Assembly (NCBI GenBank): GCA_031972475.1
Contig: DALYEP010000001.1
Span: forward strand, 670,567-734,566
Direction of reading: 5' to 3'
Length of the DNA stretch: 64,000 nucleotides
From: Candidatus Babeliales bacterium
Lineage (GTDB): Bacteria; Babelota; Babeliae; Babelales; CAIQNR01
The notes under the pieces are model-generated. The model was not told the origin of the DNA. It did not search any database and saw nothing but the letters and a program-made list of their open reading frames with translations. The translations under genes were made by a program, and so were the position numbers. Positions 3,009 to 28,031 of the stretch are shown piece after piece; position 1 is the first letter of the stretch; each line of letters begins with the position of its first letter.

Positions 3009-3374
3009 TTATTGTTCTTGAATAATAATTACAGTAGGTCTACTTGTTTCATGATTTGAATTTTTCTCTCCCTCAAGTGTTGTTTTTAAAAACATTCGAT
3101 CCAGGGTGTTTTGACTAGCGCGCCCTGAGGCGAGCGCTTCTTTTCGGGCATTTTCTTTACTAGTTTCATCTTGCTCTAATGCTTCATTTAACTTTCCTAC
3201 AGCTTCTAAAATTTTCTGAGTATGATCATCAAATTTTTTTATTAATGAATGATTTGCGCTTTTTATATTAATGGTAATGCTCAAAGGTATGATAAATTTT
3301 ATATATATCATCCGAGACGAAATCTTTTTTATGGTTTTTTTTAAAAAAATTATAAAAAATTTTTTAATATTCAT
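3009..3374 (-). CDS. Hypothetical small protein with a hydrophobic N-terminus
   Basis: 121-aa ORF lying tail-to-tail with the symporter. It has a basic/hydrophobic N-terminus and a charged C-terminal half. I recognise no family. Confidence 0.4.
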   Translation of the reverse strand: MNIKKFFIIFLKKTIKKISSRMIYIKFIIPLSITINIKSANHSLIKKFDDHTQKILEAVGKLNEALEQDETSKENARKEALASGRASQNTLDRMFLKTTLEGEKNSNHETSRPTVIIIQEQ

Positions 3375-9429: not shown

Positions 9430-10362
9430 GTGAATAAAAAAAGATATTTTTTATGTGGGATAGTTTTAATAAGTCAGGCTTTTGGAACTTCTAGTTTTGT
9501 TACAGAGTCTTACTCTACAAGCTCTTCTTTTAAAGAAGATATGGTGAATGGAAAATTAATAAAATCTGAAAAATTACATAAAAGTAGTAATAATAAAACA
9601 GCAGGTAAGGATGGCAAAATTATTTATCAAAAATTTGATAATAATAAAGATGAGCAAGTGCAAGATCCTTTTTTAGGTATAAAAACTTCTGGAGAAGATT
9701 ATTTTAATTACAACACCCAATCTTCTATTGATAAAAAAATGATAAAATTAGTTACAGGCTCATGTTCAATTACCGACTTTGGAAGTGGTTTTACCGATCG
9801 TCAAGTTGCTATTGTAAAAAAGAATGCGGCAAAAAATGTTTCAGGAGATTTTTTGTTTGGAATTTTTAATTCTTCAAATGATGCAGTTACTATGAATGCA
9901 GAAAGTGCATTAATTCAAGCTTTTCATCAAGGAGACAATAAGCCTGATATAGAAATCATGATTGATGCTTTAGAGAATATTAAAGAATTTAGTGAAGATA
10001 ATAATTATAAAGATTTTTTTGGTGTAGGAATGGCTATTTTACGCGATCTTACTTCTAGAAAAGAGCTGACTGTTTGGTGCCCTTTTAATTGTAAGGCAGC
10101 TGTTTTTTCTAAAAGAAATATTAGTGATTGTGATGATATGGTCTGTTTTAAAAGCATATCAAAAGGAGATATTATTATTTTTGGAACAAATAACTTTTGG
10201 GAAAAAATTGATTCAAATGAAGCAATAAAGATTGCAAAAAAAGATTTTAAAAAAGTTTCATATGCAAAATCTGCTATTGATGTAGCAGAAAAATTAGTGA
10301 TTACAGCTCGGACAAGAGGTTGTAACGAGGCAATGAATGTACTTGTTGTTTATATTTTGTAA
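9430..10362 (+). CDS. Exported PP2C/PPM-like protein with substituted metal-binding residues (putative pseudophosphatase)
   Basis: GTG start 6 nt after AAGGAG, with signal peptide MNKKRYFLCGIVLISQAFG. The PP2C motif order is conserved: FLFGIFNSSNDA (compare FGVFDGHGG), LTVWCPFNCKAAVF (compare VANVGDSRAVL), GDIIIFGTNNFWEKI (compare LILASDGLWD) and RGCNEAMNVLVVYI (compare GSKDNITVIVV). Confidence 0.5.
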   Translation: MNKKRYFLCGIVLISQAFGTSSFVTESYSTSSSFKEDMVNGKLIKSEKLHKSSNNKTAGKDGKIIYQKFDNNKDEQVQDPFLGIKTSGEDYFNYNTQSSIDKKMIKLVTGSCSITDFGSGFTDRQVAIVKKNAAKNVSGDFLFGIFNSSNDAVTMNAESALIQAFHQGDNKPDIEIMIDALENIKEFSEDNNYKDFFGVGMAILRDLTSRKELTVWCPFNCKAAVFSKRNISDCDDMVCFKSISKGDIIIFGTNNFWEKIDSNEAIKIAKKDFKKVSYAKSAIDVAEKLVITARTRGCNEAMNVLVVYIL

Positions 10363-10434: not shown

Positions 10435-13152
10435 GTGAATACATACGATAAAAATACATTATTTTTAATAGACGGCTCATCTTTTTTATATCGTGCATAT
10501 TACGGGCTTCGCCCTTTACATACTCCTCAAGGAGCTCCTGTTCAAGCTGTCTATGGTTTTTGTCGTATGATAAAAAAATTAATAGAAAAATTCGATGCTC
10601 ACAATGTTGTTCTTATTTGGGATAGTAAAGGTAAAACAGATCGTCATCAGTTGTTTCCTGATTATAAAGGAAACAGACAAGAACCTCCTTCTGATCTGTT
10701 TGAACAAAAAGAATTAATTGTAGCATTTGCTAATGCTATTGGTCTTAAACAATATTCTAAGGTTGGGATAGAAGCAGATGATTTGATGTATTCATTTGCG
10801 CAATGGTGGTCAAAAAGTGGTAATAAGTCGATAATTATAACATCAGATAAAGACATGGGACAGGCGATTGATGATAATATTGTAATATATGACTCATTTA
10901 AAGACCTTATTATTGATAAGGATGTGTTTAACGAAAGAATGGGCTTTGATCCATCTAAAACAGTTTTTTATTTTTCTCTTGTCGGAGATTCTTCTGATAA
11001 CATTCCAGGTGTAAAAGGAATAGGCGCTAAGGGCGCTTTAGAACTTGTTTCATCATATGATTCTTTACAAGATGTTTATTTAAAAATTGATACTGTTGTG
11101 AGTAAGCGTTTAAAAACTGCACTGGAAGAGCATAAAGAGGATGCTTTTTTAAGTGAAAAATTATTTACGCTTACTTGTTATTCAATAGAAAAAAAAGATT
11201 ATAATGTGCAATTTGATAAAAGTTGTTGGAGTGGTGCAAGGACGCTTTTTGAAGAGCTTAATTTTATAAGTCTGCTTAAAGAGATACCAGCTCCAGCAAT
11301 ACAACAAAGTTTTTTTGATATATCTAAAACAAGTAAAGATTATGGTTATAGTTTTATTTTGATTACTAATCTTATTGATTTAGAAAATCTTATAGAAAAA
11401 ATTAAATATAAAAAAAAGTTTGCTTATGATACTGAGACTGATTCTTTAACTTCTTTGCAATGCAATCTTGTTGGAATATCTATCTGTGTAGAAGAAAATT
11501 TTTCTTATTATATTCCATGCGGTCATAATACAAAAGAAGAACAGCTACCGATTGATATTGTTATTCAAAAAATGAAAAATATTTTTGAAGATAAAGATAT
11601 TTATAAAATTGCACATAATTCAAAATTTGATCAGTTAGTTCTTTCTCAATATGGCATTTATTTAGAAGGGCTTTTTTTTGATACAATGATAGCTGCTTCT
11701 TTAGTTAAAGAAGATTGGCAAAAGGCAGGGCTTAAAGAACTTTCTGAAGTTTATTTACACGAGAAAATGCTTACTTTTAAAGAAGTAGTAGAAGATAAAA
11801 AATATAAAAACTTTTCTTATGTACCATTATCCGAAGCTCTTGAATACGCTGCTGCAGATGCACATCAAACATTTAAATTACAGTCAATTTTAGAACATTC
11901 GCTAGAAGCAAAAGAGCAAAAAAATTTGTTTTATACTATTGAAATGCCACTGGTTTTAGTTCTTTTTGATATGGAAAGATTAGGAATTTATTGTGATATA
12001 GATGTGCTTAAATCTTTATATCAAACAGTTGTAGAAAAACTTGATCAGATTAATAAAACTATTCTTGGATTGATTGATCCGTCTTATGCTTCTATTAATT
12101 TAAATTCTCCTAAGCAAGTTGAGGATCTCTTATTTAATGGTCTTAAATTAACTCGTCAAAAAAAGAGTGTGAAGAGTAATACCTATTCAACAGATAATGA
12201 AGTTTTATTAGAATTAAGTAAAGATCATCCTGTTCCTTCATATATCGTTCAATATAGAGAGCTTTATAAGTTGAAAAGTACTTATATTGATGCATTGCCA
12301 ACATATATTAGTTCAAAAGACAATAGAATTCATACAACATATAGTCAAAATCGTGTAGCAACAGGACGACTTGCAAGTTCAGATCCAAACTTGCAAAATA
12401 TTCCTGTTCAGGGATTGGGTTCTATTGTAAGAATGGCTTTTAAGCCAGAAAGTGAAAATAGAGTTTTTATATCTGCAGACTACTCTCAAATTGAACTTCG
12501 CATTCTTGCTCAAGTAACTCAAGACCCTGTATTGATTAACGCATTTAAAAATAATGAAGATATTCATGCTCAAACAGCAGCAGGTATTTTTGATGTTTCA
12601 TTGACTGATGTTACTTTAGAGCAGCGTGCAATTGGAAAAAGAATTAATTTTAGTATTTTATATGGCCTTACTCCTTACGGTTTATCTAAAGATTTAGATA
12701 TTTCTCTTAAAGAGGCAAAGCATTTTATTGATACTTATTTTTCTCATTATAAAAATGTTCGTCCTTGGATGAATAATGTTATAGAAGATGCAAAAAGAAC
12801 AGGTTATGTAAAAACTATCTTTGGTAGACGTCGTTATATTCCTGGTCTTAAAGAAAAAAATAAAAATCTTTATGATCTTGCATGTCGAATTGCAGTTAAT
12901 ACAATCCCTCAAGGAACAAGCGCTGAAATTATGAAAATAGGCATGATTCGCGTTCATTCATTATTAAAAGATAAATATCATAATGCATATATTTTACTTC
13001 AAATTCACGATGAAATACTTATTGAGTGTGATCAAGAAGATGCTACTTTGATAGAAATAGATATTAAAAAAGAATTAGAGTCGGTTGTTTTGTGGGATAT
13101 TCCTTTGGCAGTTTCTACTAAAATCGGAAGGAATTGGAGAGATGCTGAATGA
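10435..13152 (+). CDS. polA: DNA polymerase I (5' nuclease, 3'-5' exonuclease-like and polymerase domains)
   Basis: 905 aa. N-terminal 5'-3' exonuclease (LIDGSSFLYRAYY, GVKGIGAKGALEL), a central exonuclease domain (FAYDTETDSL), and polymerase motifs A (SADYSQIELRILA), B (RAIGKRINFSILYG) and C (LQIHDEILIE). Confidence 0.95.
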   Translation: MNTYDKNTLFLIDGSSFLYRAYYGLRPLHTPQGAPVQAVYGFCRMIKKLIEKFDAHNVVLIWDSKGKTDRHQLFPDYKGNRQEPPSDLFEQKELIVAFANAIGLKQYSKVGIEADDLMYSFAQWWSKSGNKSIIITSDKDMGQAIDDNIVIYDSFKDLIIDKDVFNERMGFDPSKTVFYFSLVGDSSDNIPGVKGIGAKGALELVSSYDSLQDVYLKIDTVVSKRLKTALEEHKEDAFLSEKLFTLTCYSIEKKDYNVQFDKSCWSGARTLFEELNFISLLKEIPAPAIQQSFFDISKTSKDYGYSFILITNLIDLENLIEKIKYKKKFAYDTETDSLTSLQCNLVGISICVEENFSYYIPCGHNTKEEQLPIDIVIQKMKNIFEDKDIYKIAHNSKFDQLVLSQYGIYLEGLFFDTMIAASLVKEDWQKAGLKELSEVYLHEKMLTFKEVVEDKKYKNFSYVPLSEALEYAAADAHQTFKLQSILEHSLEAKEQKNLFYTIEMPLVLVLFDMERLGIYCDIDVLKSLYQTVVEKLDQINKTILGLIDPSYASINLNSPKQVEDLLFNGLKLTRQKKSVKSNTYSTDNEVLLELSKDHPVPSYIVQYRELYKLKSTYIDALPTYISSKDNRIHTTYSQNRVATGRLASSDPNLQNIPVQGLGSIVRMAFKPESENRVFISADYSQIELRILAQVTQDPVLINAFKNNEDIHAQTAAGIFDVSLTDVTLEQRAIGKRINFSILYGLTPYGLSKDLDISLKEAKHFIDTYFSHYKNVRPWMNNVIEDAKRTGYVKTIFGRRRYIPGLKEKNKNLYDLACRIAVNTIPQGTSAEIMKIGMIRVHSLLKDKYHNAYILLQIHDEILIECDQEDATLIEIDIKKELESVVLWDIPLAVSTKIGRNWRDAE

Positions 13153-13474
13153 AAAAATAATATTGAATTTAGTAGCAATGTTGTTGATATCAACAACATT
13201 AGCATCTGGTCAAAAAAAAGTTAGATTTGCATTGTTCAAATCAGTCTTATGTTGTTGTAAGGCTCGTGAGTCTAATGAGGCTACTTTTTTATGGCATCCT
13301 GATGCAGCCCCTGCTTTTTGTTTGCCAGCAAAAGATCATTTAGATAAAACAAGTCTTTCGGCTTTTTCAACATCAAGTAGTAGTTTTGAATATGTTAGTT
13401 TGGGTTCAAAGCTTTCAACTTCTTCTTTACATACTCATTCAAGGTCACTGGTGAATTTAAAACATGATGAATGA
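13142..13474 (+). CDS. Small exported Cys/Ser-rich hypothetical protein
   Basis: The start is moved to the ATG at 13142 (MLNEKIILNLVAMLLISTTLASG), which lies inside the last codons of polA. It contains an LCCCK cluster and a Ser-rich tail. The ORF-track start at 13085 would sit deep inside polA. Confidence 0.45.
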   Translation: MLNEKIILNLVAMLLISTTLASGQKKVRFALFKSVLCCCKARESNEATFLWHPDAAPAFCLPAKDHLDKTSLSAFSTSSSSFEYVSLGSKLSTSSLHTHSRSLVNLKHDE

Positions 13475-13528
13475 TAGATGACAGAATATTATGATGAAAA
13501 CTAAATTAAAATTAATTATAGGAGAAAA

Positions 13529-14275
13529 ATGGAAAATTTAATAAAAACAGATTCTTTGCTTATTGATCCTCTTAAAGATGGAATTAGTTCAGTTGAATTA
13601 TTACGTATTTCTGGCTCAGATCTTGATATAGCAAATGCTGCTCGTGTCTCTTATGGTCGTATCTCTCATGAAATTAGCGAAAGAGATAAGACCTTGATTC
13701 AATTTTTAATGGATCATGAACATACAAGTCCTTTTGAACACAACCAATTATCTTTTCGCATTAAAGCCCCAATTTTTATAGCTCGACAATGGATGCGACA
13801 TAGAATGAATTCTTATAATGAAATTAGCTATCGCTATGTCAAAGTTAAAACAGAATTTTATATACCATCATCATTTAGATTACAAGATACACAAAATAAG
13901 CAATCATCTCTTGGCTCGTTTCAAAACGACACTGCTTTACAAGCATATAAAAGCGCATTAGAAGTAGCATATAATACTTACACATCAATGATTGAAGCTG
14001 GGGTTTGTCGTGAACAAGCTCGTGCAATATTACCTGTTGCTACCTATACAGAATTTATTTTCACATGCAATCTTCATTCATTGATGCATTTTTTAAAGTT
14101 ACGTTTAGGTTCTGGAGCGCAACAAGAAATTCGTTCATATGCTCAAGCGCTTTTAGAGTTAGTTATTCCACATTTTCCAATTACCTTAGATGCATGGCGT
14201 AAGAAATATTTACCAGAAGAAAATTGGGTGTATAATGATGCCGTTGTTAATACATGGACAAAGCAATTAGGGTAA
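13529..14275 (+). CDS. thyX: Flavin-dependent thymidylate synthase ThyX
   Basis: ThyX signature QWMRHRMNSYNEISYRY (RHR...S.....S.RY). 248 aa. GGAG lies upstream of the ATG. Confidence 0.92.
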   Translation: MENLIKTDSLLIDPLKDGISSVELLRISGSDLDIANAARVSYGRISHEISERDKTLIQFLMDHEHTSPFEHNQLSFRIKAPIFIARQWMRHRMNSYNEISYRYVKVKTEFYIPSSFRLQDTQNKQSSLGSFQNDTALQAYKSALEVAYNTYTSMIEAGVCREQARAILPVATYTEFIFTCNLHSLMHFLKLRLGSGAQQEIRSYAQALLELVIPHFPITLDAWRKKYLPEENWVYNDAVVNTWTKQLG

Positions 14276-14288
14276 AAAGGGTAAGTCG

Positions 14289-14651
14289 TTGTTTAAATTT
14301 TTACTATTAGGTTTTATTTTTTCTTTTAATTTATATTCATCAGCTAATTTTCCTTCTGATACTAGTAGATCAACTCAACCTTTAGTTGAGGTATTAGAGA
14401 GACCTACTGAGTGGCAGTTGCGTGCTGGGCAAGGAGTAGTTTCTGCAGAAAATATAGTTTCTATGGATGACTATTTTTTTTCCGAACAGGAAAGAAGATC
14501 TTGCTGTAAAGTTTCTTCCTGTAAAAAAGAATCTTGTGGGGCATTCCCAGTTCGTTTTTGTTGTTTAGTTACTCTTCCGTTTACTGCTGTTACTGCAGCT
14601 GCAATGACAGCTTTTTGGTATGTAATTCAACAGTCAAATAAAAATGATTAA
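14289..14651 (+). CDS. Small signal-peptide protein with juxtamembrane Cys cluster and C-terminal TM anchor (family member 1)
   Basis: TTG start. N-terminus MFKFLLLGFIFSFNLYSS. C-terminus SCCKVSSCKKESCGAFPVRFCCLVTLPFTAVTAAAMTAFWYVIQQSNKND, which aligns with the C-terminus of the protein encoded at 15211-15759. Confidence 0.6.
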   Translation: MFKFLLLGFIFSFNLYSSANFPSDTSRSTQPLVEVLERPTEWQLRAGQGVVSAENIVSMDDYFFSEQERRSCCKVSSCKKESCGAFPVRFCCLVTLPFTAVTAAAMTAFWYVIQQSNKND

Positions 14652-14688
14652 TATCATCTTTTGTTAATTTTTTTAAAAAGGAGTTGTA

Positions 14689-14958
14689 ATGAAAAAGTAT
14701 TTTTATTTATTTTTTATAATAAACAACCTTTATTCTTCTAATCAAAAAGCAGCTATTAATCAAAGGCCTGATAGTCATATTATTGATATGGAAAGAATTA
14801 ATCGACCATTACTCAACAGCCGTTTTCAAGATAAAGAAACACAGGCAGTTGTTCAAGATGATGATTGTATAATAAGTATATGTTCTTATACAGCGCTTTT
14901 AGCATGTGGTCTTATTGCAGCAAAATTTTTTAATTGTATTAAATATAAAGAAGATTAA
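14689..14958 (+). CDS. Small signal-peptide protein with C-terminal hydrophobic anchor (family member 2)
   Basis: AAGGAG upstream of the start. N-terminus MKKYFYLFFIINNLYSS. C-terminal segment CIISICSYTALLACGLIAAKFFNC. Confidence 0.55.
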   Translation: MKKYFYLFFIINNLYSSNQKAAINQRPDSHIIDMERINRPLLNSRFQDKETQAVVQDDDCIISICSYTALLACGLIAAKFFNCIKYKED

Positions 14959-14984
14959 TGAGTGCTTTTTGAAAGGATATTTCT

Positions 14985-15227
14985 ATGAAGTATTTAGCTA
15001 TTTTTTTATTTTTTTTAACTAATCAATTATTTTCTTCTGAAAATGCTGATAAGCCAGATTTTGTTATAACAAATATAGAACCTAATATGCTTTCAGGTGA
15101 ATCAAAAGAGGCAGATATTGTTAAAGAAGGTAGCAAAGTGTCAGAAGTTAGTTGTAAAGACAGTTCATATTTTGATAATAAGATATCTTCTTTTTGTATG
15201 GCGGGTCTTTATGTACTCCTTATTTGA
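14985..15227 (+). CDS. Small signal-peptide protein with C-terminal hydrophobic anchor (family member 3)
   Basis: N-terminus MKYLAIFLFFLTNQLFSSE. C-terminus SSFCMAGLYVLLI. It overlaps the next gene by 17 nt. Confidence 0.5.
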   Translation: MKYLAIFLFFLTNQLFSSENADKPDFVITNIEPNMLSGESKEADIVKEGSKVSEVSCKDSSYFDNKISSFCMAGLYVLLI

Positions 15228-15759
15228 TTTATTAAAAGCAAAAGCTTTTAATAAAAAATACAATTTTTTTATATCACCCTTGCTCGGTTTAATTATTTTT
15301 GCAAATTTATATGCATCAGAGCCTTTGTTATCTCAAAAAAATTTGAGCGTGAATAGAGATGAATTTAGAGACCTTGCGATTGCAAGATATGCAGCTTATT
15401 CTAAAGAAGGTTATATTCAAGGTACAAATGAAGAATACCCTACAAATCAAGTTGTAGCAGAAGTTGAAAATCAGTCTTCATTAAATGAACGAGCTGTTCA
15501 TAAAAGTTATGAAACATTTTCTAAAAGCAGGCAAGGTTATACTGAGGGAACATATTCTTTAAGAAGAAATGCAACTTCAGAAGACTCCCAAATAGAAGCG
15601 CTTGAAGTAGGAGGAAATAGTTGTTGTAATAGAAAAAAAGAGATCTGCTCGTTTGGTCGTATTTATTGTATTGCAATAATAGGCATCCCTCTTTTTTTAG
15701 TATCAAGTGCCGCAGGAATTGGATTGTGGTATGCAAATCAACAGTCAAATTCAAATTAA
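15211..15759 (+). CDS. Signal-peptide protein with juxtamembrane Cys cluster and C-terminal TM anchor (family member 4)
   Basis: The start is moved to ATG 15211 (MYSLFDLL...LLGLIIFANLYAS). C-terminus SCCNRKKEICSFGRIYCIAIIGIPLFLVSSAAGIGLWYANQQSNSN shares SCC, KKE.C, a TM segment and WY..QQSN with the protein encoded at 14289-14651. Confidence 0.6.
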   Translation: MYSLFDLLKAKAFNKKYNFFISPLLGLIIFANLYASEPLLSQKNLSVNRDEFRDLAIARYAAYSKEGYIQGTNEEYPTNQVVAEVENQSSLNERAVHKSYETFSKSRQGYTEGTYSLRRNATSEDSQIEALEVGGNSCCNRKKEICSFGRIYCIAIIGIPLFLVSSAAGIGLWYANQQSNSN

Positions 15760-15958
15760 AAATCAAAGCTTTAGGGTTGTCTTTATGAAAAACAGCTTTA
15801 ATTTAGACTTTTAAAAAAAGAGAACTTTTTATTTTTTAAAGATTTGCTGATAAATAACTGCCTTGTTGATTTTAGGAATTTAAGCGAGCAAGCCTTTTCC
15901 AGATAGGGTTAATTTAAGGCTTATTTTTGGCAATTTATTTAATTACAATATGCTCGAT

Positions 15959-16055: not shown

Positions 16056-16316
16056 ATGGCAACGAGTAAATCTGGTGGCTCAACATCAAACGGTCGTGAT
16101 AGTATTGGTAGAAGACTTGGTACTAAAAAGTACGCAGGTGAAGTAGTTCAACCTGGCGATATCATTATTCGTCAAAGAGGAACAAAGTTTCATGCTGGTG
16201 ATCACGTTGGTATGGGTAAAGATCATACATTATATGCACTTGGTGCTGGAACAGTAAGATTCCATTATCGTAGTGGTGGTCGCAAGTATGTATCTATAGA
16301 TTCAGTTTCTGAGTAA
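16056..16316 (+). CDS. rpmA: 50S ribosomal protein L27
   Basis: 86 aa: [59 protein letters not shown] is a canonical L27 sequence. Confidence 0.95.
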
Positions 16317-17434: not shown

Positions 17435-19165
17435 ATGAAAGATGATAAAATGACTAATCCTGTTGCGCCAAAAAGGAAAACAGTTGTTCGTAAAAAAGAG
17501 CCAAAAGTAGTAGTAGAACAAGTAATAGATCAACAGCCAGCTCAAGCAGTAACCGTTTCGGTTCCTACTCCTGTTTTAACTTCTCCTGTACAACAGCCTA
17601 TTGCGGTTGTTTCTCAAACAGAGCAGCCTCAAAAATTGGTGCGCGAAACTGTAAAGAAACAGTATGTTTCGCGAAGTCATAATTCATCTCGTAATCAAAA
17701 TCAATCTACAGCACAGCGTCAAGAAAATTATCCAAATATTCAAAGTGGGAATCAAAATCAATCGCAACCACAATATCCATATCAGCAGCCACAGCAGCAA
17801 TCTCAGCAGAACTATCATCATCATCAAAGACAACAAGATGTTTCTCCTAAGGTTTTGATGCGTGAACAAATGGAAGAGCTTTCTGTTCAAGAGCTTAATA
17901 TTCATGCCCGCCGTTGGGGTATTATAGGCTCAAGTTTAATGCTGCATAGGGAGTTGGTGGAAAAAATACTTGAAGCTCAACAGCACCCAGACAGAGAAAT
18001 TGCAGTTGAAGGTTTGCTTGAAAAACTTCCAGATGGTTTTGGTTTTTTGCGTTCACAAAAATTTGATTACATTTCAAGTCCTGATGACGTATATGTTTCT
18101 CCATCTCAAATTCGCCGTTTTGGTTTGCGTACTGGAGATACTGTTACAGGGACTATTCGTAAGCCAAAAGAGGGTGAAAAATATTTTGCATTACTTAAAG
18201 TTGATAAAGTTAATTTTCAAGATCCGGTAAAGCTTAATGAACGACCAACTTTTGATCGTTTATCTCCAATGCATCCGGATAAAAAATTTACACTTGAATC
18301 TGATCCTCTTAAAATATCAACTCGTTTAATGGATATTTTTACACCAGTAGGTCGAGGGCAAAGAGGATTGATTGTTGCTCCTCCAAAAGCTGGTAAAACA
18401 ATGCTCCTTAAGGAGATTGCCCAAAGTTTAATTTCTAACCATCCAGATGTTTATTTAATGGTTCTTCTTATTGATGAGCGGCCTGAAGAAGTTGCAGATA
18501 TGAGAAGATTTGTTAAAGGTGCTCACGCTGAGGTTATTAGTTCAACTTTTGATGAATCAGCAGAACGACATGTTCAAGTTGCGGAAATAGTACTTGAAAA
18601 GGCAAAAAGATTTGTAGAATCAGGTAAAGATGTTGTCATTCTTCTTGACGCAATTACTCGATTGGCACGTGCTTACAATACAACGGCTCCTGCTTCTGGA
18701 AAAGTTTTAACTGGTGGTATTGATGCAAATGCTCTTCAAAGGCCAAAACGCTTCTTTGGCGCTGCTCGTAGTATGGAAGAAGGTGGTTCTCTTACTATAA
18801 TAGCAACGGCTCTTGTTGAAACTGGATCTCGCATGGATGAAGTAATCTATGAAGAGTTTAAAGGTACAGGTAATATGGAGATGCATTTAAGTAGAAAACT
18901 TGCAAATCGTCGTATTTATCCTGCGTATGATTTACTTATGTCATCAACTCGTCGAGATGATTTGTTATTCTCAGAGGAAGAGCAAAAGCGTTCTTGGGTT
19001 CTTCAAAAATTCTTAGCAAACATGAATCCTATAGAAGGAATGGAGTTTATGATTGACAAGATGAAGAAATTCAAAACAAACGAAGAGTTTTTTGACTCTA
19101 TGAATAAACAGCGTCCAGTTAGTGGTTCTAATGGCAATGGCAATGGTTCTTCTGAATTAAAATAA
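17435..19165 (+). CDS. rho: Transcription termination factor Rho with ~140-aa N-terminal extension containing a Q/N-rich tract
   Basis: Rho_N helix bundle ([15 protein letters not shown]), cold-shock-like RNA-binding domain (GFGFLR), Walker A PPKAGKT and the C-terminal RecA-like domain. The extension is aa 1-141, including [55 protein letters not shown] lies upstream of the ATG. Confidence 0.92.
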
Positions 19166-19173
19166 GATAGTAC

Positions 19174-19491
19174 ATGAAAGTATTTATTAATATTTTAATA
19201 AGGCTATTTTTTGTTTATTCTTTTTTTCCTGTTTTTTGTTCAGAAAATCAAGAACTATCTCCACTTCAAAAGCAACTTCAAGATTCTGTTTCAAGGGGTA
19301 TGGTTGTTTTTTTTTCAGCAGCTATTATTTCTGGTATTGAGCAAGCTGCAAGATTGTACGAAGAAGAAAATAATCAAAATCATTTTTTAAGTAATACTTT
19401 AAAGACATATAAAATGTTTTTGCTTATTAAAGCCACTAGTATAGGAATTGCTTCACCTTTATATCACTATTTTTTTAAAAAAAATAATTAA
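19174..19491 (+). CDS. Small membrane/exported hypothetical protein
   Basis: 105 aa, starting 9 nt after the rho stop. N-terminus MKVFINILIRLFFVYSFFPVFCSEN, plus two further hydrophobic segments. Confidence 0.5.
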   Translation: MKVFINILIRLFFVYSFFPVFCSENQELSPLQKQLQDSVSRGMVVFFSAAIISGIEQAARLYEEENNQNHFLSNTLKTYKMFLLIKATSIGIASPLYHYFFKKNN

Positions 19492-22429: not shown

Positions 22430-22807
22430 GGGGGCGCACTGGTTTCGACGTGTTATTAAAGTTTGCAGAAGCATGCCGAGCTTTTATTGAGTGCTCGTAA
22501 AACAAACAGTAAAAACATAAATGCAAACAATGTATTTGCAAACCAAGCGGTTGCCGCTGCTTAACTTTAATAGTTAAACAGTCTTGTCTGATTAAACATG
22601 CTCATATGTTGAAAAAGACTCGTATAATAAAAAAAATGAGACTGCTGTAGTAGGTTATACCCGTTTGTAGTGCAGCAGGATACCAACGTGTCTTAAAGTA
22701 TCTTCCCGTTTTCCAGGTAATATTTTAAGAATTTTTGGAAACTAAGCATGTAGCGTCTGTTTTCGGTAATTTTACGGACATGGGTTCGATTCCCATCGCC
22801 TCCACCA
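22430..22807 (+). ncRNA. ssrA: tmRNA (SsrA), one-piece; predicted tag ANNVFANQAVAAA
   Basis: 5' GGGGGCG pairs with 3' CGCCTCC followed by ACCA, and includes the G3:U alanine identity pair. GGTTCGATTCCC forms the T-arm. The tag reading frame GCA AAC AAT GTA TTT GCA AAC CAA GCG GTT GCC GCT GCT TAA occupies 22523-22564. Confidence 0.9.
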
Positions 22808-23648
22808 TTCCCATATGTTCCATTAAAACATTTTTATCTAAGTAAAAATTTAATTTGTAGTCAGAGTGCTCTGCACAAATATCACGTAATATAGTGTCAA
22901 ATTTTTTATCAAAAAAATTCATATAAATTCTTATAATTTTTTTAAAATTTTCTGATAAATTGATTTTTTCATACATTTTTCTTTCTGGATAATACTTATA
23001 ATGTTGTAAATAAATATCGCAACCAGAAGTAGTTATCACTATTTGCTTTAAAAAAAATTCTTGGTCTATGAGTCTTTTATTAGAATGTTTTTCATACGCT
23101 AATAAAGATTTTTCTAGCTGCATTATATCACAAAAAAAACTTGCAAAGTCATCATCTATAGAGCTTTCGTTTATTAAATTATCATCATAATCATCATCTA
23201 CATTAGCTGGCGAGTTTAATCTTAGAAGTTCTTTTTCGCTAAATAATTCTGGATAAGGGCACTCTTCCTCTTCGCTTAATTCTAAATATTCACCTGCAAG
23301 ATTAAATCTCTCTTCAAAATTAAAATCTGTATCATTTATAGTTGAAGGTTTAAAAAACTTACTCATTTTAATTGCTAATTCTTTAATAAGAGATTCTCTA
23401 TCGGGGGTGCTTTTGGTTATTTCTTTTTTTAGTAATTGGCTGAAAATTGTATTTCTTGAAGAAGATTTGGATCTTATTGCTTGAGTTATAAGATCTCCAA
23501 GAAATTCTTCTCTTAATGATAATGATTGGTTTATTTCTTGAAATTCTAATTCGGGGTTTTGATCAAGGCAAAGGCGTTTTGGTTCAAAAGAAGATTCTTG
23601 TGCAAAACAATTATGTAATGCTAATAAAAATATTAATCTATAAAACAT
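22725..23648 (-). CDS. Hypothetical exported acidic protein; its 3' end runs antisense into the tmRNA gene
   Basis: 307 aa with signal peptide MFYRLIFLLALHNCFAQES and a D/E-rich middle. The last ~27 codons (22725-22807) are complementary to the tmRNA 3' domain. Confidence 0.5.
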   Translation of the reverse strand: MFYRLIFLLALHNCFAQESSFEPKRLCLDQNPELEFQEINQSLSLREEFLGDLITQAIRSKSSSRNTIFSQLLKKEITKSTPDRESLIKELAIKMSKFFKPSTINDTDFNFEERFNLAGEYLELSEEEECPYPELFSEKELLRLNSPANVDDDYDDNLINESSIDDDFASFFCDIMQLEKSLLAYEKHSNKRLIDQEFFLKQIVITTSGCDIYLQHYKYYPERKMYEKINLSENFKKIIRIYMNFFDKKFDTILRDICAEHSDYKLNFYLDKNVLMEHMGMVEAMGIEPMSVKLPKTDATCLVSKNS

Positions 23649-26579: not shown

Positions 26580-26879
26580 TTATTTCTTAAAAAGAAGATA
26601 TAGAGCAAGTGATTGAGTATCTGGAGGAAATGGTTGAGCATTTCCGCTGTTAAAATTTTCAATAGGGGTTGTTCTTAACCTTTCAAATTTTTTATTTTCT
26701 TTTCTTTGCTCTTCTAGCCATTTTTTAAAATGGGATGCTTTGCCACATATTAAAGAATGTTTTTCTATTTGTGGTTTAGTGATACGACCATTATTGATAT
26801 GGTTTTGGCTGGATTCTTTTTCTGAGCAAAAAACAAAATTTGTGTAAAAAGAAAGTAAGAGTAATAACTTTTTGAACAT
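26580..26879 (-). CDS. Small exported protein, shared-signal-peptide array member C
   Basis: MFKKLLLLLSFYTNFVFCSEKE. Its signal peptide is nearly identical to that of the adjacent 26901-27545 gene, and it shares a PIEN motif near the C-terminus. Confidence 0.5.
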   Translation of the reverse strand: MFKKLLLLLSFYTNFVFCSEKESSQNHINNGRITKPQIEKHSLICGKASHFKKWLEEQRKENKKFERLRTTPIENFNSGNAQPFPPDTQSLALYLLFKK

Positions 26880-26900
26880 AAAGTGCCTTTAATTTTCTTA

Positions 26901-27545
26901 TTATTTTTTTGGAGATTTAAATGAAGCCAATATTCCTGCTGCAGAAGAAATATCTTCGGGGTTTTCAATAGGAGGCTTTCTTTTTACTGCAAAAGAAATT
27001 TGTATCTCTTCAGTTCTAATTTCAGACTCATCAAACTTAGAGGAATTTCTTTTAGAGGGAGTTATTTTGAAGAATTCTTGTTGTTGAGTAAGGAAATTTT
27101 TTAATGTTTTAAATTGTGTTTCTAGTTCATTTATTGTTTCTTCTTTATCATTCCTTCCTATTGCTAAAACAAGCCTTTCACGAATTGTTTTAAATGCTAG
27201 AAATAATGGATCTTTTAAAAGTATTGTTTTAGAGTCGTTAAAAAGCTCTTGAATTAGTTTTTTTTGCAATTCAGACGCTTCTTTAACAAGGCGTTCAGTT
27301 GGAAAAGATTCGTCTTCTTGCGCTGATTGTTTGAGTTTGTTGCAGGCATCTTGTAGTGCTTCTACTCTTAAAATTAATGCTTGTTGTTTTGGAGTTAGTT
27401 CACTAACTCTATATTCAAGCGATCCATGTGAGTTTTCATAACACAAAGAGGCAGATTCTATTGTAGGGTCATATAGAGTTAAATGTTCAGAGCAAAAAAG
27501 TGAATTTGAATAAAAAGAGAGAAAAAGTAATAGTTTTTTTAACAT
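26901..27545 (-). CDS. Exported coiled-coil protein, shared-signal-peptide array member B
   Basis: MLKKLLLFLSFYSNSLFCSEHL, followed by a helical heptad-like E/K/Q/L-rich body. 214 aa. Confidence 0.55.
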   Translation of the reverse strand: MLKKLLLFLSFYSNSLFCSEHLTLYDPTIESASLCYENSHGSLEYRVSELTPKQQALILRVEALQDACNKLKQSAQEDESFPTERLVKEASELQKKLIQELFNDSKTILLKDPLFLAFKTIRERLVLAIGRNDKEETINELETQFKTLKNFLTQQQEFFKITPSKRNSSKFDESEIRTEEIQISFAVKRKPPIENPEDISSAAGILASFKSPKK

Positions 27546-27554
27546 AAAAGATCC

Positions 27555-28031
27555 TTAATCATTTGTTTGTTTTTTAAAATTTTGAATTAATTCTTTAATT
27601 TTATCTAAATTTAATTCTGTTATTTCTTTATATCTTTTTTCATTTTCTTCTAATTGTGATAAAAGCTCAGGAGAAATGTTTTCTAAGTTTTGAATGGACC
27701 ATTCTTTTTCTTTTTGCGCTCTTTCAAGCAATAGTTCATTCTGAAACAAGATGTTTGCGCTTTCTCCAAGAGCACGGGCATCTTTATTTATTTCTTTTAA
27801 ATAATCTAAAAGTAAAAATACTCCATCTTTGATTGCGGCCTGTCTTAGATAAAAAAAATGGAAAGTTGCTTTTTGCCGCTCTGTTAACTTTGCTTCTGGA
27901 TACATGTAGTGTTTCTGGTCCTTGCTTAAATAATAAAATCTTTCCTCATTATTCATTCCGAGCAATACTATTCTTTCATTGCAAAATAAATTTATACAGG
28001 AAAGAAATAATAAAAATAATATTTTTTTCAC
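27555..28031 (-). CDS. Exported coiled-coil protein, shared-signal-peptide array member A
   Basis: MKKILFLLFLSCINLFCNER, followed by an E/K/L-rich helical body. 158 aa. Confidence 0.55.
   Translation of the reverse strand: MKKILFLLFLSCINLFCNERIVLLGMNNEERFYYLSKDQKHYMYPEAKLTERQKATFHFFYLRQAAIKDGVFLLLDYLKEINKDARALGESANILFQNELLLERAQKEKEWSIQNLENISPELLSQLEENEKRYKEITELNLDKIKELIQNFKKQTND

Follow-up and report, generated by a model that had tools for sequence, protein, structure and literature searches.

Small, putatively exported proteins with cysteine clusters encoded around thyX in a genome of the Dependentiae

The few cultured Dependentiae are obligate parasites of protists. In Chromulinavorax destructans, signal peptides are found on 44% of the coding sequences and are enriched among ORFans (PMC6561590). 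In the cultured Babela massiliensis, type II secretion is the sole secretion route reported (PMC4378268), a system with components shared across TM6 genomes (PMC4378268, PMC4776705). Here we analysed five small genes, A to E, located around thyX in a 64-kb stretch of DNA (the window) from the same phylum. The ORFans of these two species offer the nearest comparison, being plentiful domainless signal-peptide proteins that often form expanded or tandem families or lie in variable islands (PMC6561590, PMC4378268), and orphan exported proteins of this kind are common in the phylum. However, a class with a cysteine cluster and a C-terminal helix, or a hotspot adjacent to thyX, is not described in either paper (PMC6561590, PMC4378268), and a full-text literature search pairing Dependentiae with cysteine-rich returned nothing relevant.

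The sequence-only reading knew of no described bacterial family with a cleavable signal, a variable domain, a cysteine cluster, a membrane segment and a short polar tail. [quoted passage not shown] JDVT-CTERM, Synerg-CTERM and CGP-CTERM are relatives that also contain cysteine (PMC11980579; bioRxiv 10.1101/2023.06.07.544157). Eukaryotic CYSTM proteins (PF12734) and S-acylated tail-anchored or polybasic proteins are likewise short, with a C-terminal hydrophobic segment and clustered cysteines, and the likeness is strongest for the relatives at locus L011, which carry 12-13 Cys in the last 45 residues. The eukaryotic proteins differ in lacking a signal peptide and in being inserted from the cytosol, and no Pfam match at E<=1, to CYSTM or to eukaryotic-like domains, was obtained for the window proteins or 10 relatives. 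A looser comparison is with OmcA/CrpA and OmcB of Chlamydia, which are small, Sec-exported, Cys-rich proteins of a bacterium that is obligately intracellular and has an extracellular infectious stage; the disulfide role in the window proteins is only putative. Disulfide cross-linking of the small cysteine-rich envelope proteins stiffens the chlamydial envelope. OmcA, however, lacks a C-terminal helix, is an outer-membrane lipoprotein lipidated at its N-terminus, and is dissimilar in sequence to A to E.

Five genes at the polA-rpmA junction

All five ORFs lie on the plus strand, tightly packed around thyX in the interval between polA and rpmA, and the coordinates given for them by the sequence-only reading were reproduced (Table 1). 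Gene A begins, as it had also stated, inside the last codons of polA, with its ATG at 13142 and the end of polA at 13152, an 11-nt overlap at the polA stop. The neighbouring genes were identified by Pfam as polA, thyX, L27, SecF and Rho. From polA through E, neighbouring genes are separated by -17 to +54 nt, and rpmA is preceded by a gap of 296 nt that contains promoter-like sites; from this layout we infer an operon, in which polA and thyX are probably transcribed together with A to E.

Table 1. Features of the thyX region, in window positions (L002 and L003, two related MAGs)
Feature	Position	Strand	Description
Gene A	13142..13474	+	110 aa; ATG start; supported by ORF call, public protein collection and L002/L003 orthologs
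CCC triplet of A	13250..13258	+	TGT TGT TGT, Cys37-39, after the N-terminal signal region
thyX	13529..14275	+	flavin-dependent thymidylate synthase; PF02511 Thy1; landmark within the array, not an array member
Gene B	14289..14651	+	120 aa; TTG start 13 nt past the thyX stop; L002 ortholog P0008
C-terminal module of B	14499..14648	+	aa 71-120: SCCKVSSCKKESC, helix of ~24 aa ending FWY, tail QQSNKND
Gene C	14689..14958	+	89 aa; AAGGAG Shine-Dalgarno upstream; ortholog at L002 11312-11569
Gene D	14985..15227	+	80 aa; positional counterpart only in related MAGs
Gene E	15211..15759	+	182 aa; first 17 nt overlap D
C-terminal module of E	15619..15756	+	aa 137-182: SCCNRKKEIC, helix of ~24 aa ending LWY, tail ANQQSNSN

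The boundaries of A to E are identical in the ORF list and in a public protein collection, where each is an unannotated singleton at 90% identity. In-frame codon scores range from 0.31 to 0.50 per codon (A 0.35, B 0.36, C 0.387, D 0.50, E 0.31), compared with means of 0.50 for real genes and -0.08 for shadow ORFs. Only D exceeds the 95th percentile of the shadow-ORF null (0.39), so A, B, C and E cannot be judged on codon score alone. These four scores, the singleton status, and the state of D, whose ortholog is undetectable by sequence, whose hydrophobic end is truncated and whose 3' end is overlapped by E, would fit the view that some or all of the genes are non-functional, whether as remnants in decay or as chance ORFs that gene callers pick up in an AT-rich spacer. 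We regard this as very improbable, since the score of every ORF is far lower in the five alternative frames, A to D each follow a Shine-Dalgarno-like sequence, the packing is tight and operon-like, open frames with signal peptides are retained in three genomes despite many indels and 38-43% identity in alignable stretches, and the C-terminal module of B and E is conserved (E=1e-8 to 1e-28). The lack of homologs elsewhere, which the sequence-only reading would have taken as a mark of spurious ORFs, is not what we found: homologs exist, although only in two closely related MAGs. We conclude from these sequence features that A to E are genuine protein-coding genes.

The source genome is assigned to the Dependentiae (TM6, Babeliales-like). 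The best 80 of 97 thyX loci in a genome-contig scan carry Dependentiae, Babeliales or TM6 titles or belong to unclassified MAG bins, and thyX is 59-88% identical to these 80. Inspection of the relatives revealed that the gene order polA-thyX-rpmA-secF recurs, with thyX and rpmA separated by 44 bp to 5.5 kb. Both related MAGs carry orthologs of A, B/E and C at the same position. Identity to L002 is 38% for A (9620-9937; the L003 ortholog lies at 9484-9981), 43% for B and 34% for C (over 59 aa), with D undetectable, whereas it is 74% for the PP2C-like ORF upstream of polA and 84-99% for polA, thyX, L27, SecF and Rho. This difference argues that A to E are rapidly evolving, clade-restricted genes. 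At seven further loci (L004, L006, L008, L009, L011, L075, L079), in more distant Babeliales, the same position encodes small proteins of like design with no sequence homology. On such comparisons the junction between polA-thyX and rpmA-secF-rho is a variable hotspot in Dependentiae, which in the lineage of the window would have gathered genes for small, fast-evolving exported proteins.

Sequence families among the five proteins

Pairwise similarity was expressed as z-scores from composition-preserving shuffles (3000 for B versus E). The C-termini of B and E are 37% identical over 49 aa (E=2e-7; z=13.5), and none of the 3000 shuffles reached the observed score. Their ectodomains, in contrast, show no detectable similarity (z=0.2), and ectodomain comparisons are non-significant even among orthologs. 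Both the paralogy and the unrelated ectodomains had been noticed in the sequence-only reading. DNA repeats connect the two genes at their 5' and 3' ends, the 3' ends being 76% identical over 49 nt, and the nearest MAG, L002, has one B/E-type gene. Taken together with the C-terminal z-score, the repeats and this single copy indicate that B and E are duplicates of one ancestral gene. Conservation in the B/E family is limited to the signal peptide and the last ~50 residues, with Cys146 and W173 of E invariant across all four members. Between these ends B has a non-conserved stalk of ~50 aa; E has a long n-region before its signal peptide and a stalk of ~100 aa.

The other genes do not belong to this family. 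C and D resemble each other (z=5.2) and B (z=3.7) in the signal region only, which in the C/D pair is 74% identical over 38 nt of DNA, and their C-termini score z<=1.3 against B/E and against each other. C consists of a signal peptide ending NNLYSS, a polar stretch, a hydrophobic segment (aa 60-82) with four Cys, and the tail IKYKED. In D, a signal peptide with the ending NQLFSS leads into an acidic polar stretch and then a hydrophobic stub of 13-14 aa, SSFCMAGLYVLLI, at the extreme C-terminus; no ortholog is detectable by sequence in L002 or L003, and D may be a decaying or truncated C-like copy. A scores z<=0.3 against B to E. Its signal-like region (aa 1-23) is followed by a basic and amphipathic stretch ending in the CCC triplet and an S/T-rich polar tail, with no C-terminal hydrophobic segment. 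In the A-type alignment, no column is invariant except those of the Met-Leu start and of Cys37, C38 and C39, and A-type relatives end in LLSLLCCCCLKKSKK, which is kept in five metagenomic clusters. A would be a soluble exported protein, distinct from the rest, and what it conserves is the amphipathic stretch with CCC and basic residues after it. A to E thus fall into at least three unrelated sequence families by these scores, and the single paralogous family that the sequence-only reading had proposed was rejected, both for all five and for four of them.

The signal-peptide ends of B (NLYSS), C (NLYSS), D (QLFSS) and E (NLYAS) are near-identical, as had been noted, and [NQ]L[YF][AS]S does not occur again in the six frames of the whole 64-kb window. 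A relaxed ending, N-x-[LV]-F-C-[SN], recurs in a second tandem array at 26580-28031 on the minus strand, so the N-terminal likeness is partly a genome-wide signal-peptide style.

The C-terminal module as a candidate sorting signal

When 1.84 billion representative proteins were searched exhaustively with HMMER, the B/E module turned up in only four of them, from three genomes. This search for phyletic spread, which had been suggested earlier, confines the module to closely related genomes with one or two copies each. No match to the small proteins of the window was obtained in the Pfam, NCBIfam or PDB families.

We considered whether the B/E module, and perhaps also the Cys-rich tails of relatives at the locus, is a sorting signal of the MYXO-CTERM type, by which, after Sec export, the helix would hold the protein in the inner membrane until an intramembrane protease cleaves near the invariant Cys, with possible lipidation, followed by surface display or release towards the host through type II secretion. 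The order of parts is equal to that of MYXO-CTERM, and the invariant C146 of E lies in K-x-x-C (PMC11980579). Both systems occur in bacteria relying on type II secretion; no other secretion system is reported for Babela, and the components of this one are kept across TM6 genomes (PMC4378268, PMC4776705). MYXO-CTERM and GlyGly-CTERM cargo are known precedents for helix-bearing type II cargo (PMC11980579; 10.64898/2026.02.05.703148). Conserved ends with an unconstrained passenger would also suit a tag. However, the B and E tails are polar, rich in Gln, Ser and Asn (QQSNKND, QQSNSN), and lack the defining Arg-rich cluster. Genuine sorting tags are found on dozens of diverse, unrelated passengers per genome, whereas each genome with the B/E module has it on just one or two proteins, which are tiny and probably disordered. 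At E<=10 in NCBIfam, a library that presumably contains the CTERM sorting-domain models, B and E match only the unrelated LptC, and a scan of 10 membrane or unassigned ORFs in the window revealed no CPBP, rhomboid or exosortase gene. Membership of B and E in the MYXO-CTERM family itself was rejected on tail, copy number and HMM search, and a sorting signal of this type is improbable.

Predicted membrane topology and the putative role of the cysteines

Cleavage and topology were judged from anatomy and simple hydrophobicity scales. The hydrophobic stretches of B, C and E reach the length needed to cross a membrane, with Hessa dG values of +2.1, -0.4 and +1.2, compared with +2.5 for the bona fide TM1 of SecF on the same crude scale. 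The stretch of D does not (dG +8 for a 19-mer). Four hydrophobic ends had been proposed in the sequence-only reading, and three of these are of membrane-spanning length; likewise, its exported proteins with C-terminal anchors do have Sec-type signal regions, but A is anchorless and D has only a stub. Short ends also occur in the C-like protein of L002 and in the L008 protein, so a single anchor explanation fails for the whole class. The helices of B and E are marginally hydrophobic and contain Pro, and might escape arrest in the Sec translocon.

The reading that we prefer, at a rough probability of 0.45, is that A to E are small Sec-exported proteins, of which B, C and E are anchored in the envelope and combine a C-terminal helix, a flexible stalk and a Cys cluster. 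After Sec translocation and signal-peptide cleavage, the helix would act as a stop-transfer anchor, giving a type I single-pass protein in the cytoplasmic membrane of the parasite, with the short polar tail in the cytoplasm, the stalk in the periplasm and the Cys cluster close to the membrane. These small proteins have 2-6 Cys in the last ~50 aa, compared with a mean of 0.6 in the last 45 aa of the long proteins of the compared loci, 4.7% of which have at least three. Since the number of cysteines varies while their position beside the helix is kept, we take the cluster as the working part, most likely one that binds metal or forms intermolecular disulfides at the membrane surface of the envelope. 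The fallback of the sequence-only reading, an envelope module with disulfides or bound metal, is plausible and close to this. Neither a Dsb-type oxidase nor a partner protein was detected within the window. The variable Cys number is equally compatible with lipidation or cross-linking as with disulfides.

In the effector idea of the sequence-only reading, the hydrophobic tail and Cys cluster would instead mimic eukaryotic membrane-targeting signals, on proteins delivered into the host and S-acylated there; B, C and E would then be tail-anchored-like, with cytosolic juxtamembrane cysteines, and A and L011-type proteins would resemble palmitoylated polybasic peripheral proteins. A variable Cys count with clustering kept beside hydrophobic or basic residues, as observed here, is typical of degenerate acylation sites, and the only moderate hydrophobicity of the B and E helices is a property reported for translocated membrane effectors. 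The Dependentiae live as parasites inside cells, and secretion of their signal-peptide proteins into the host has been proposed (PMC4378268, PMC6561590). The LLSLLCCCCLKKSKK ends of A-type relatives resemble eukaryotic anchors of Cys plus polybasic residues. A bacterial precedent is reportedly SifA of Salmonella, with a lipidated CLCCFL tail. The predicted topology nevertheless suits this reading poorly, because a cleaved signal peptide and a C-terminal helix would arrest B, C and E in the inner membrane with their cysteines non-cytosolic (periplasmic or exoplasmic), whereas DHHC-type S-acylation requires cysteines facing the cytosol. We know of no route by which a helix-bearing protein leaves through type II secretion without removal of the helix. 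Such a protein is an unobvious cargo for Sec plus type II (PMC4378268), neither CYSTM nor any eukaryotic-like domain was matched in Pfam, and the relatives share no consistent CaaX or CC terminus. We consider host S-acylation unlikely.

The envelope-anchored reading includes a flexible stalk. In the AlphaFold2 model of E, the one B/E member modelled, the only helices are two terminal ones, the C-terminal of which covers residues 147-181; pLDDT is below 50 at residues 66-149, and the middle of E is predicted to be disordered.

Small genes packed around thyX

The ORF list between 9 and 18 kb, together with inspection of the sequence, revealed seven tightly packed genes on the + strand from polA to E, among them the five small ORFs A to E around thyX (see table). 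Neighbouring genes of this block are spaced −17 to +54 nt apart. The last 17 nt of D are shared with E, and A overlaps the polA stop by 11 nt, so the first small gene does begin inside the end of polA, as had been noticed earlier. The positions proposed for the five ORFs were confirmed by the ORF list and by a public protein collection, in which all of A-E are called as genes with identical ends and each forms a singleton cluster at 90% identity. A gap of 296 nt separates E from rpmA. The operon-like packing suggests that A-E are co-transcribed with polA and thyX; a promoter scan gave results no better than shuffles, and a terminator scan detected none after E. Gene E is framed almost precisely by the two copies of an imperfect 18-nt direct repeat (83% identical, at 15231-15248 and 15755-15772), which may reflect the junctions at which a duplication produced E and truncated D; alternatively, the match may have arisen by chance in AT-rich DNA. 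The G+C content of the window is ~31%.

Genes of the polA-rho region: positions, identity to the related locus L002, and Hessa-scale dG of the best 19-residue C-terminal window (simple version of the scan)
Gene	Position	Strand	Product	Identity to L002 (%)	dG (kcal/mol)
PP2C-like ORF	9430-10362		310 aa	74	
polA	10435-13152	+	905 aa; DNA_pol_A and exonuclease domains (Pfam)	84-99 (range for polA, thyX, L27, SecF and Rho)	
A	13142-13474	+	110 aa	38	
thyX	13529-14275	+	248 aa; Thy1 (Pfam)	84-99 (same range)	
B	14289-14651	+	120 aa, TTG start	43	+2.1
C	14689-14958	+	89 aa	34	−0.4
D	14985-15227	+	80 aa	none detectable	+8
E	15211-15759	+	182 aa		+1.2
rpmA	16056-16316		Ribosomal_L27 (Pfam)	84-99 (same range)	
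secF	after rpmA		SecD_SecF_C (Pfam)	84-99 (same range)	+2.5 (TM1, control)
rho	17435-19165		Rho (Pfam)	84-99 (same range)	

A codon model was trained on 21 long genes of the window. Each of A-E scored clearly best in its own frame, at 0.31-0.50 per codon; real 100-codon chunks gave a mean of 0.50 (5th percentile 0.32), and shadow ORFs a mean of −0.08 (95th percentile 0.39). Shine-Dalgarno-like sequences are present upstream of A, B, C (AAGGAG) and D. What we regard as the strongest argument for A-E as genes is the presence of positional counterparts in L002 and L003, the thyX loci of two related metagenome-assembled genomes (MAGs), where open, signal-peptide-bearing frames occupy equivalent positions. 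In both loci an A-type gene overlaps the polA stop and a single B/E-type gene stands immediately 3′ of thyX (encoding P0008, 171 aa, in L002 and P0007, 105 aa, in L003); a C-type gene was found in L002. These counterpart loci also encode one more small signal-peptide protein with a Cys-containing hydrophobic tail. The sequence-only reading had taken a lack of homologs elsewhere as the sign of spurious ORFs; homologs were found at the same positions in L002 and L003, and we consider it very improbable that A-E as a whole are spurious or decaying ORFs, less so for D alone. The identities to L002 (see table) indicate that A-E evolve very fast, and synonymous sites are saturated at 34-43% protein identity. 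With its orphan, fast-evolving small signal-peptide proteins lodged between housekeeping operons, the region is a typical piece of a Dependentiae genome.

Sequence comparison of the five proteins and their relatives

B and E share 37% identity over their last ~50 residues (E=2e-7, database of five sequences), and the score of the two C-termini (z=13.5) was reached in none of 3000 composition-preserving shuffles. Their DNA is 76% identical over 49 nt at the 3′ ends and 79% identical over 34 nt at the signal-peptide ends. These C-termini and DNA repeats bear out the proposed paralogy of B and E, and the view that their ectodomains are unrelated also stood (middle regions, z=0.2). The signal-peptide ends noticed before, NLYSS in B and C, QLFSS in D and NLYAS in E, are indeed present, and the pattern [NQ]L[YF][AS]S is limited to these four proteins in the six frames of the window. 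The further idea of one five-member paralogous family had to be given up. Likeness of C to D, and of C and D to B, is confined to the signal region (z=5.2 and 3.7, respectively; DNA 74% identical over 38 nt), the C-termini of C and D are dissimilar to those of B/E and to each other (z≤1.3), and A is similar to none of B-E (z≤0.3). D looks like a truncated C-like duplicate. A second tandem array, on the − strand, comprises three small signal-peptide ORFan paralogs (26580-26879, 26901-27545 and 27555-28031); all three lack a C-terminal hydrophobic segment and a Pfam match. Their signal peptides end in NFVFCS, NSLFCS and NLFCN, a looser style (N-x-[LV]-F-C-[SN]), and because this looser ending recurs there, the N-terminal likeness of B-E is partly the signal-peptide style of this genome.

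Alignment of the four B/E-type proteins, B, E, P0007 and P0008, shows one signal-peptide Leu, one Glu, one Cys, two helix Ala and the helix-ending Trp to be invariant. The invariant Cys, C146 of E, lies within K-x-x-C with the helix directly after it; the remaining cysteines vary in number from 2 to 6. The tails (QQSNKND, QQSNSN, HESNKND and HQDGQGQVGNLGN) contain at most one Lys and no Arg. A 175-residue alignment of E and P0008 was at one point read as ectodomain homology; shuffle tests confined to the ectodomains were not significant (E versus P0008, z=1.8; B versus P0008, z=−0.6), and the reading was withdrawn because the alignment is carried by both ends. In the B/E family, the signal peptide and the C-terminal module are the parts under selection; the middle is not.

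Copy number and spread of the family were obtained with a profile of the conserved C-terminal ~50 aa, searched exhaustively with HMMER against 1.84 billion representative proteins; B, E, P0007 and P0008 were the only true members. A fifth match, P0009 (E=4e-4), proved spurious, being a repetitive eukaryotic SNF2 helicase with no matching stretch. Word-indexed searches with B and with the B/E C-terminal alignment returned only the queries and the L002/L003 orthologs. Sequence searches of Pfam, NCBIfam and PDB with A-E and 10 relatives gave no meaningful match, and the C-terminal motif matched no characterised family in these three databases. Since L002 has one B/E-type gene, either B and E were duplicated in the lineage of the window or one copy was lost in L002. 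We conclude that B/E represents a new family, very narrow and familiar in kind, in a phylum where signal-peptide proteins account for almost half of the genes and ORFans are numerous.

An A-type profile matched only the L002/L003 orthologs and a group of 63-81-aa proteins related to ORF 3074-3316 of another thyX locus, L011. Homology of this group to A is uncertain because the common features are only a Cys run and a start forced by the polA overlap. The group (L011 3074-3316 and P0012-P0016), found between polA and thyX of a more distant Babeliales MAG, is conserved in five metagenomic clusters; its full-length members combine a signal peptide with the stretch GPFFDVDLxSPDGDE and the C-terminus LLSLLCCCCL[KQ]KSKK, whose sequence resembles eukaryotic acylation-plus-polybasic membrane anchors. 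Two further small signal-peptide proteins flank thyX in L011 (3939-4247 and 5181-5588). Their last 45 residues contain 12 and 13 Cys, more extreme than any other Cys-rich tail of the class (e.g. KSCCTGCCKKTGQVCNCCLKCC), and neither protein has a Pfam match. Ends of CaaX or Rab prenylation type (CLTL, GCC and CCK in L011 and L003) were considered and rejected, because they are not consistent within the class and do not occur in the window.

A ThyX probe gave 97 relatives; the best 80 (59-88% identity) were retained, and the window's own genome is not among them. Named taxa among these best 80 of 97 loci are Dependentiae, Babeliales and TM6, the others being unclassified or generically labelled MAG bins, and the nearest loci are L002 (88%) and L003 (79%). 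The gene order polA-thyX-rpmA-secF is widely recurrent, with a thyX-rpmA gap of 44 bp to 5.5 kb. Five more distant loci of the same clade (L004, L006, L008, L009 and L011; thyX 68-75% identical) have, between thyX and rpmA or between polA and thyX, small ORFs that repeat the design without being homologous: the N-terminus is strongly signal-like, the middle polar, and the hydrophobic end rich in Cys. A stricter scan of the best 80 of 97 loci yielded 17 ORFs of this design, ~12 of them credible within ~1.4 kb of thyX and non-independent as observations. As background, Cys accounts for 1.35% of long proteins of these loci; their last 45 residues hold 0.6 Cys on average, with at least 3 in 4.7% of the proteins. 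That the same design is kept at one locus in Babeliales relatives despite complete sequence turnover points to selection on the C-terminal end. Other loci have the gap filled by LRR or ankyrin-type signal-peptide proteins instead. We conclude that Dependentiae have a general exported-protein island around thyX. Another expanded family lies on the − strand between thyX and rpmA in two loci (L038 10766-15990 and L042 10766-11303); its members combine a signal peptide and a ~150-aa domain with a C-terminal helix whose last residues are GYQFKKN or GYVISKI. Upstream of thyX, these loci encode LRR-like signal-peptide proteins.

Cultured members of the phylum are few and are obligate parasites of protists. 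Because the design recurs, these genes are candidates for a role in the envelope or at the host interface, in a phylum whose biology has hardly been studied by experiment. This recurrence and the CCCC-polybasic relatives are noteworthy; nothing here is surprising to a specialist, and no open question is resolved.

Predicted topology and candidate roles

B, C, D and E each have a Lys-containing n-region, a 10-14-aa hydrophobic core and a small-residue end, which by anatomy predict a Sec signal peptide. The earlier statement that a hydrophobic segment ends all four held for B, C and E and failed for D, where it comprises only 13-14 residues (dG +8). A has no C-terminal hydrophobic segment, and its CCC (13250-13258) is placed after the N-terminal signal region. 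AlphaFold2, run on E with a 4-sequence alignment, gave a mean pLDDT of 53 and modelled helices only for the signal peptide and residues 147-181 (pLDDT 66-79 for the latter); the values below 50 for residues 66-149 are consistent with a disordered stalk. Membership among bacterial lipoproteins (Lgt/LspA substrates) was rejected because there is no lipobox: [LVI][ASTVI][GAS]C is absent, and no Cys stands at the end of the signal region of A-E (TLASG in A).

We propose, at a probability of roughly 45%, that B, C and E are Sec-exported, membrane-anchored envelope proteins whose Cys clusters cross-link or bind metal. As Sec substrates they would lose the signal peptide, and the C-terminal helix would stop transfer to give a type I single-pass protein of the parasite inner membrane. 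A flexible stalk would lie on the periplasmic side, with the Cys cluster close to the membrane, and a short polar tail would reach into the cytoplasm. The cluster would serve in intermolecular cross-linking or metal binding at the membrane surface, which we favour over a precise disulfide-bonded fold because the helix-adjacent position is conserved and the Cys number is not. A would be a separate soluble exported protein. Weak points of this proposal are that the B/E helices contain proline and have marginal hydrophobicity, and that D and some relatives end in short stubs. By analogy, not homology, the closest biological counterpart of these proteins may be OmcA, a small Cys-rich envelope protein of Chlamydia.

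The sequence-only reading had stated that no described bacterial family has this architecture. This was incorrect, because Cys-containing C-terminal sorting signals share it (PMC11980579), and a bacterial precedent exists. In MYXO-CTERM, a tripartite signal is cleaved by a CPBP protease, and type II secretion then leads to surface placement (PMC11980579). The layout of B/E is that of this tripartite design: B, C, D and E carry a Sec-type signal peptide on the same protein (by anatomy), and in B/E the invariant Cys stands just before the single C-terminal helix (alignment; AlphaFold2 147-181). In Babela, moreover, no secretion system other than type II has been reported, and the type II components are conserved among TM6 genomes (PMC4378268, PMC4776705). 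However, MYXO-CTERM has an Arg-rich cytoplasmic cluster after the helix, which the Arg-free B/E tails lack, and its tag occurs on many unrelated passengers per genome, whereas the B/E module is found on one or two tiny proteins per genome and on four in total. An NCBIfam scan of A-E at E≤10 returned three unrelated weak matches (LptC for B; DPH2 and YiaB for C) and no sorting-domain model. B/E thus departs from MYXO-CTERM in three tested respects, namely basic tail, HMM match and many passengers per genome. The window also offers no candidate protease, as no CPBP or rhomboid domain was found in the 10 membrane or unassigned ORFs scanned there, a scan that is uninformative for the whole genome. 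It is improbable, in our judgement, that the B/E module is a Cys-dependent sorting signal of the MYXO-CTERM type. The CYSTM domain (PF12734) gave no Pfam match at E≤1 in A-E and 10 relatives, including the most Cys-rich; CYSTM proteins are without a signal peptide, whereas A-E and these relatives carry signal-like N-termini.

The earlier suggestion that the cysteines of these proteins are S-acylated in the host fits a parasitic lifestyle: secretion of signal-peptide proteins into the host is presumed for Dependentiae (PMC4378268), and in C. destructans signal peptides are carried by 44% of the CDS, with enrichment in ORFans (PMC6561590). Degenerate Cys clustering fits as well, and the idea is most attractive for the Cys-plus-polybasic ends of A-type and L011-type proteins. 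The predicted type I topology, however, would put the cysteines of B, C and E on the non-cytosolic side, and no export route is known for a helix-bearing protein, so that host acylation appears unlikely to us. A broader scenario, which we hold to be a decidedly long shot, is that Babeliales parasites maintain tiny secreted proteins, a set under constant renewal, at a recombination-prone spot near thyX, with a eukaryote-style membrane-targeting end (a Cys cluster plus a hydrophobic tail or a polybasic stretch, e.g. LLSLLCCCCLKKSKK) as the sole conserved feature. Such proteins would reach the host through Sec and type II secretion, possibly after clipping of the helix. There, acylation by host palmitoyltransferases would fix them to host membranes such as the mitochondrial one that wraps Chromulinavorax. 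If true, they would be a new class of lipidation-dependent mini-effectors and would reveal a new type II cargo route to host membranes. Should the cysteines be lipidated or direct sorting, the locus would make a compact test case of how parasites with type II secretion only place proteins on membranes.

Other features of the window

Directly 3′ of rho, a 105-aa ORF (19174-19491, +) starts with a signal-like region that ends in VFCSEN; close to its C-terminus, a hydrophobic segment precedes the basic tail YHYFFKKNN. This is a B/C/E-like design without the Cys cluster, and the ORF has no Pfam match. Rho itself bears a Gln/Pro-rich N-terminal extension of ~190 aa before the RNA-binding domain (Pfam match from residue 191), which is also present, and variable, in related MAGs. 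The protein encoded just upstream of polA has a signal-like N-terminus, and its sole match, below threshold, is to PP2C phosphatase at the C-terminus (E=0.089); it may be a secreted PP2C-like protein. An Rfam scan of the window returned only a tmRNA (22430-22807, +, 159 bits) and a tRNA (857-929, −), both outside the A-E block. The mechanically called ORF at 22725-23648 (−) overlaps the 3′ part of the tmRNA, and its true start therefore probably lies further downstream.
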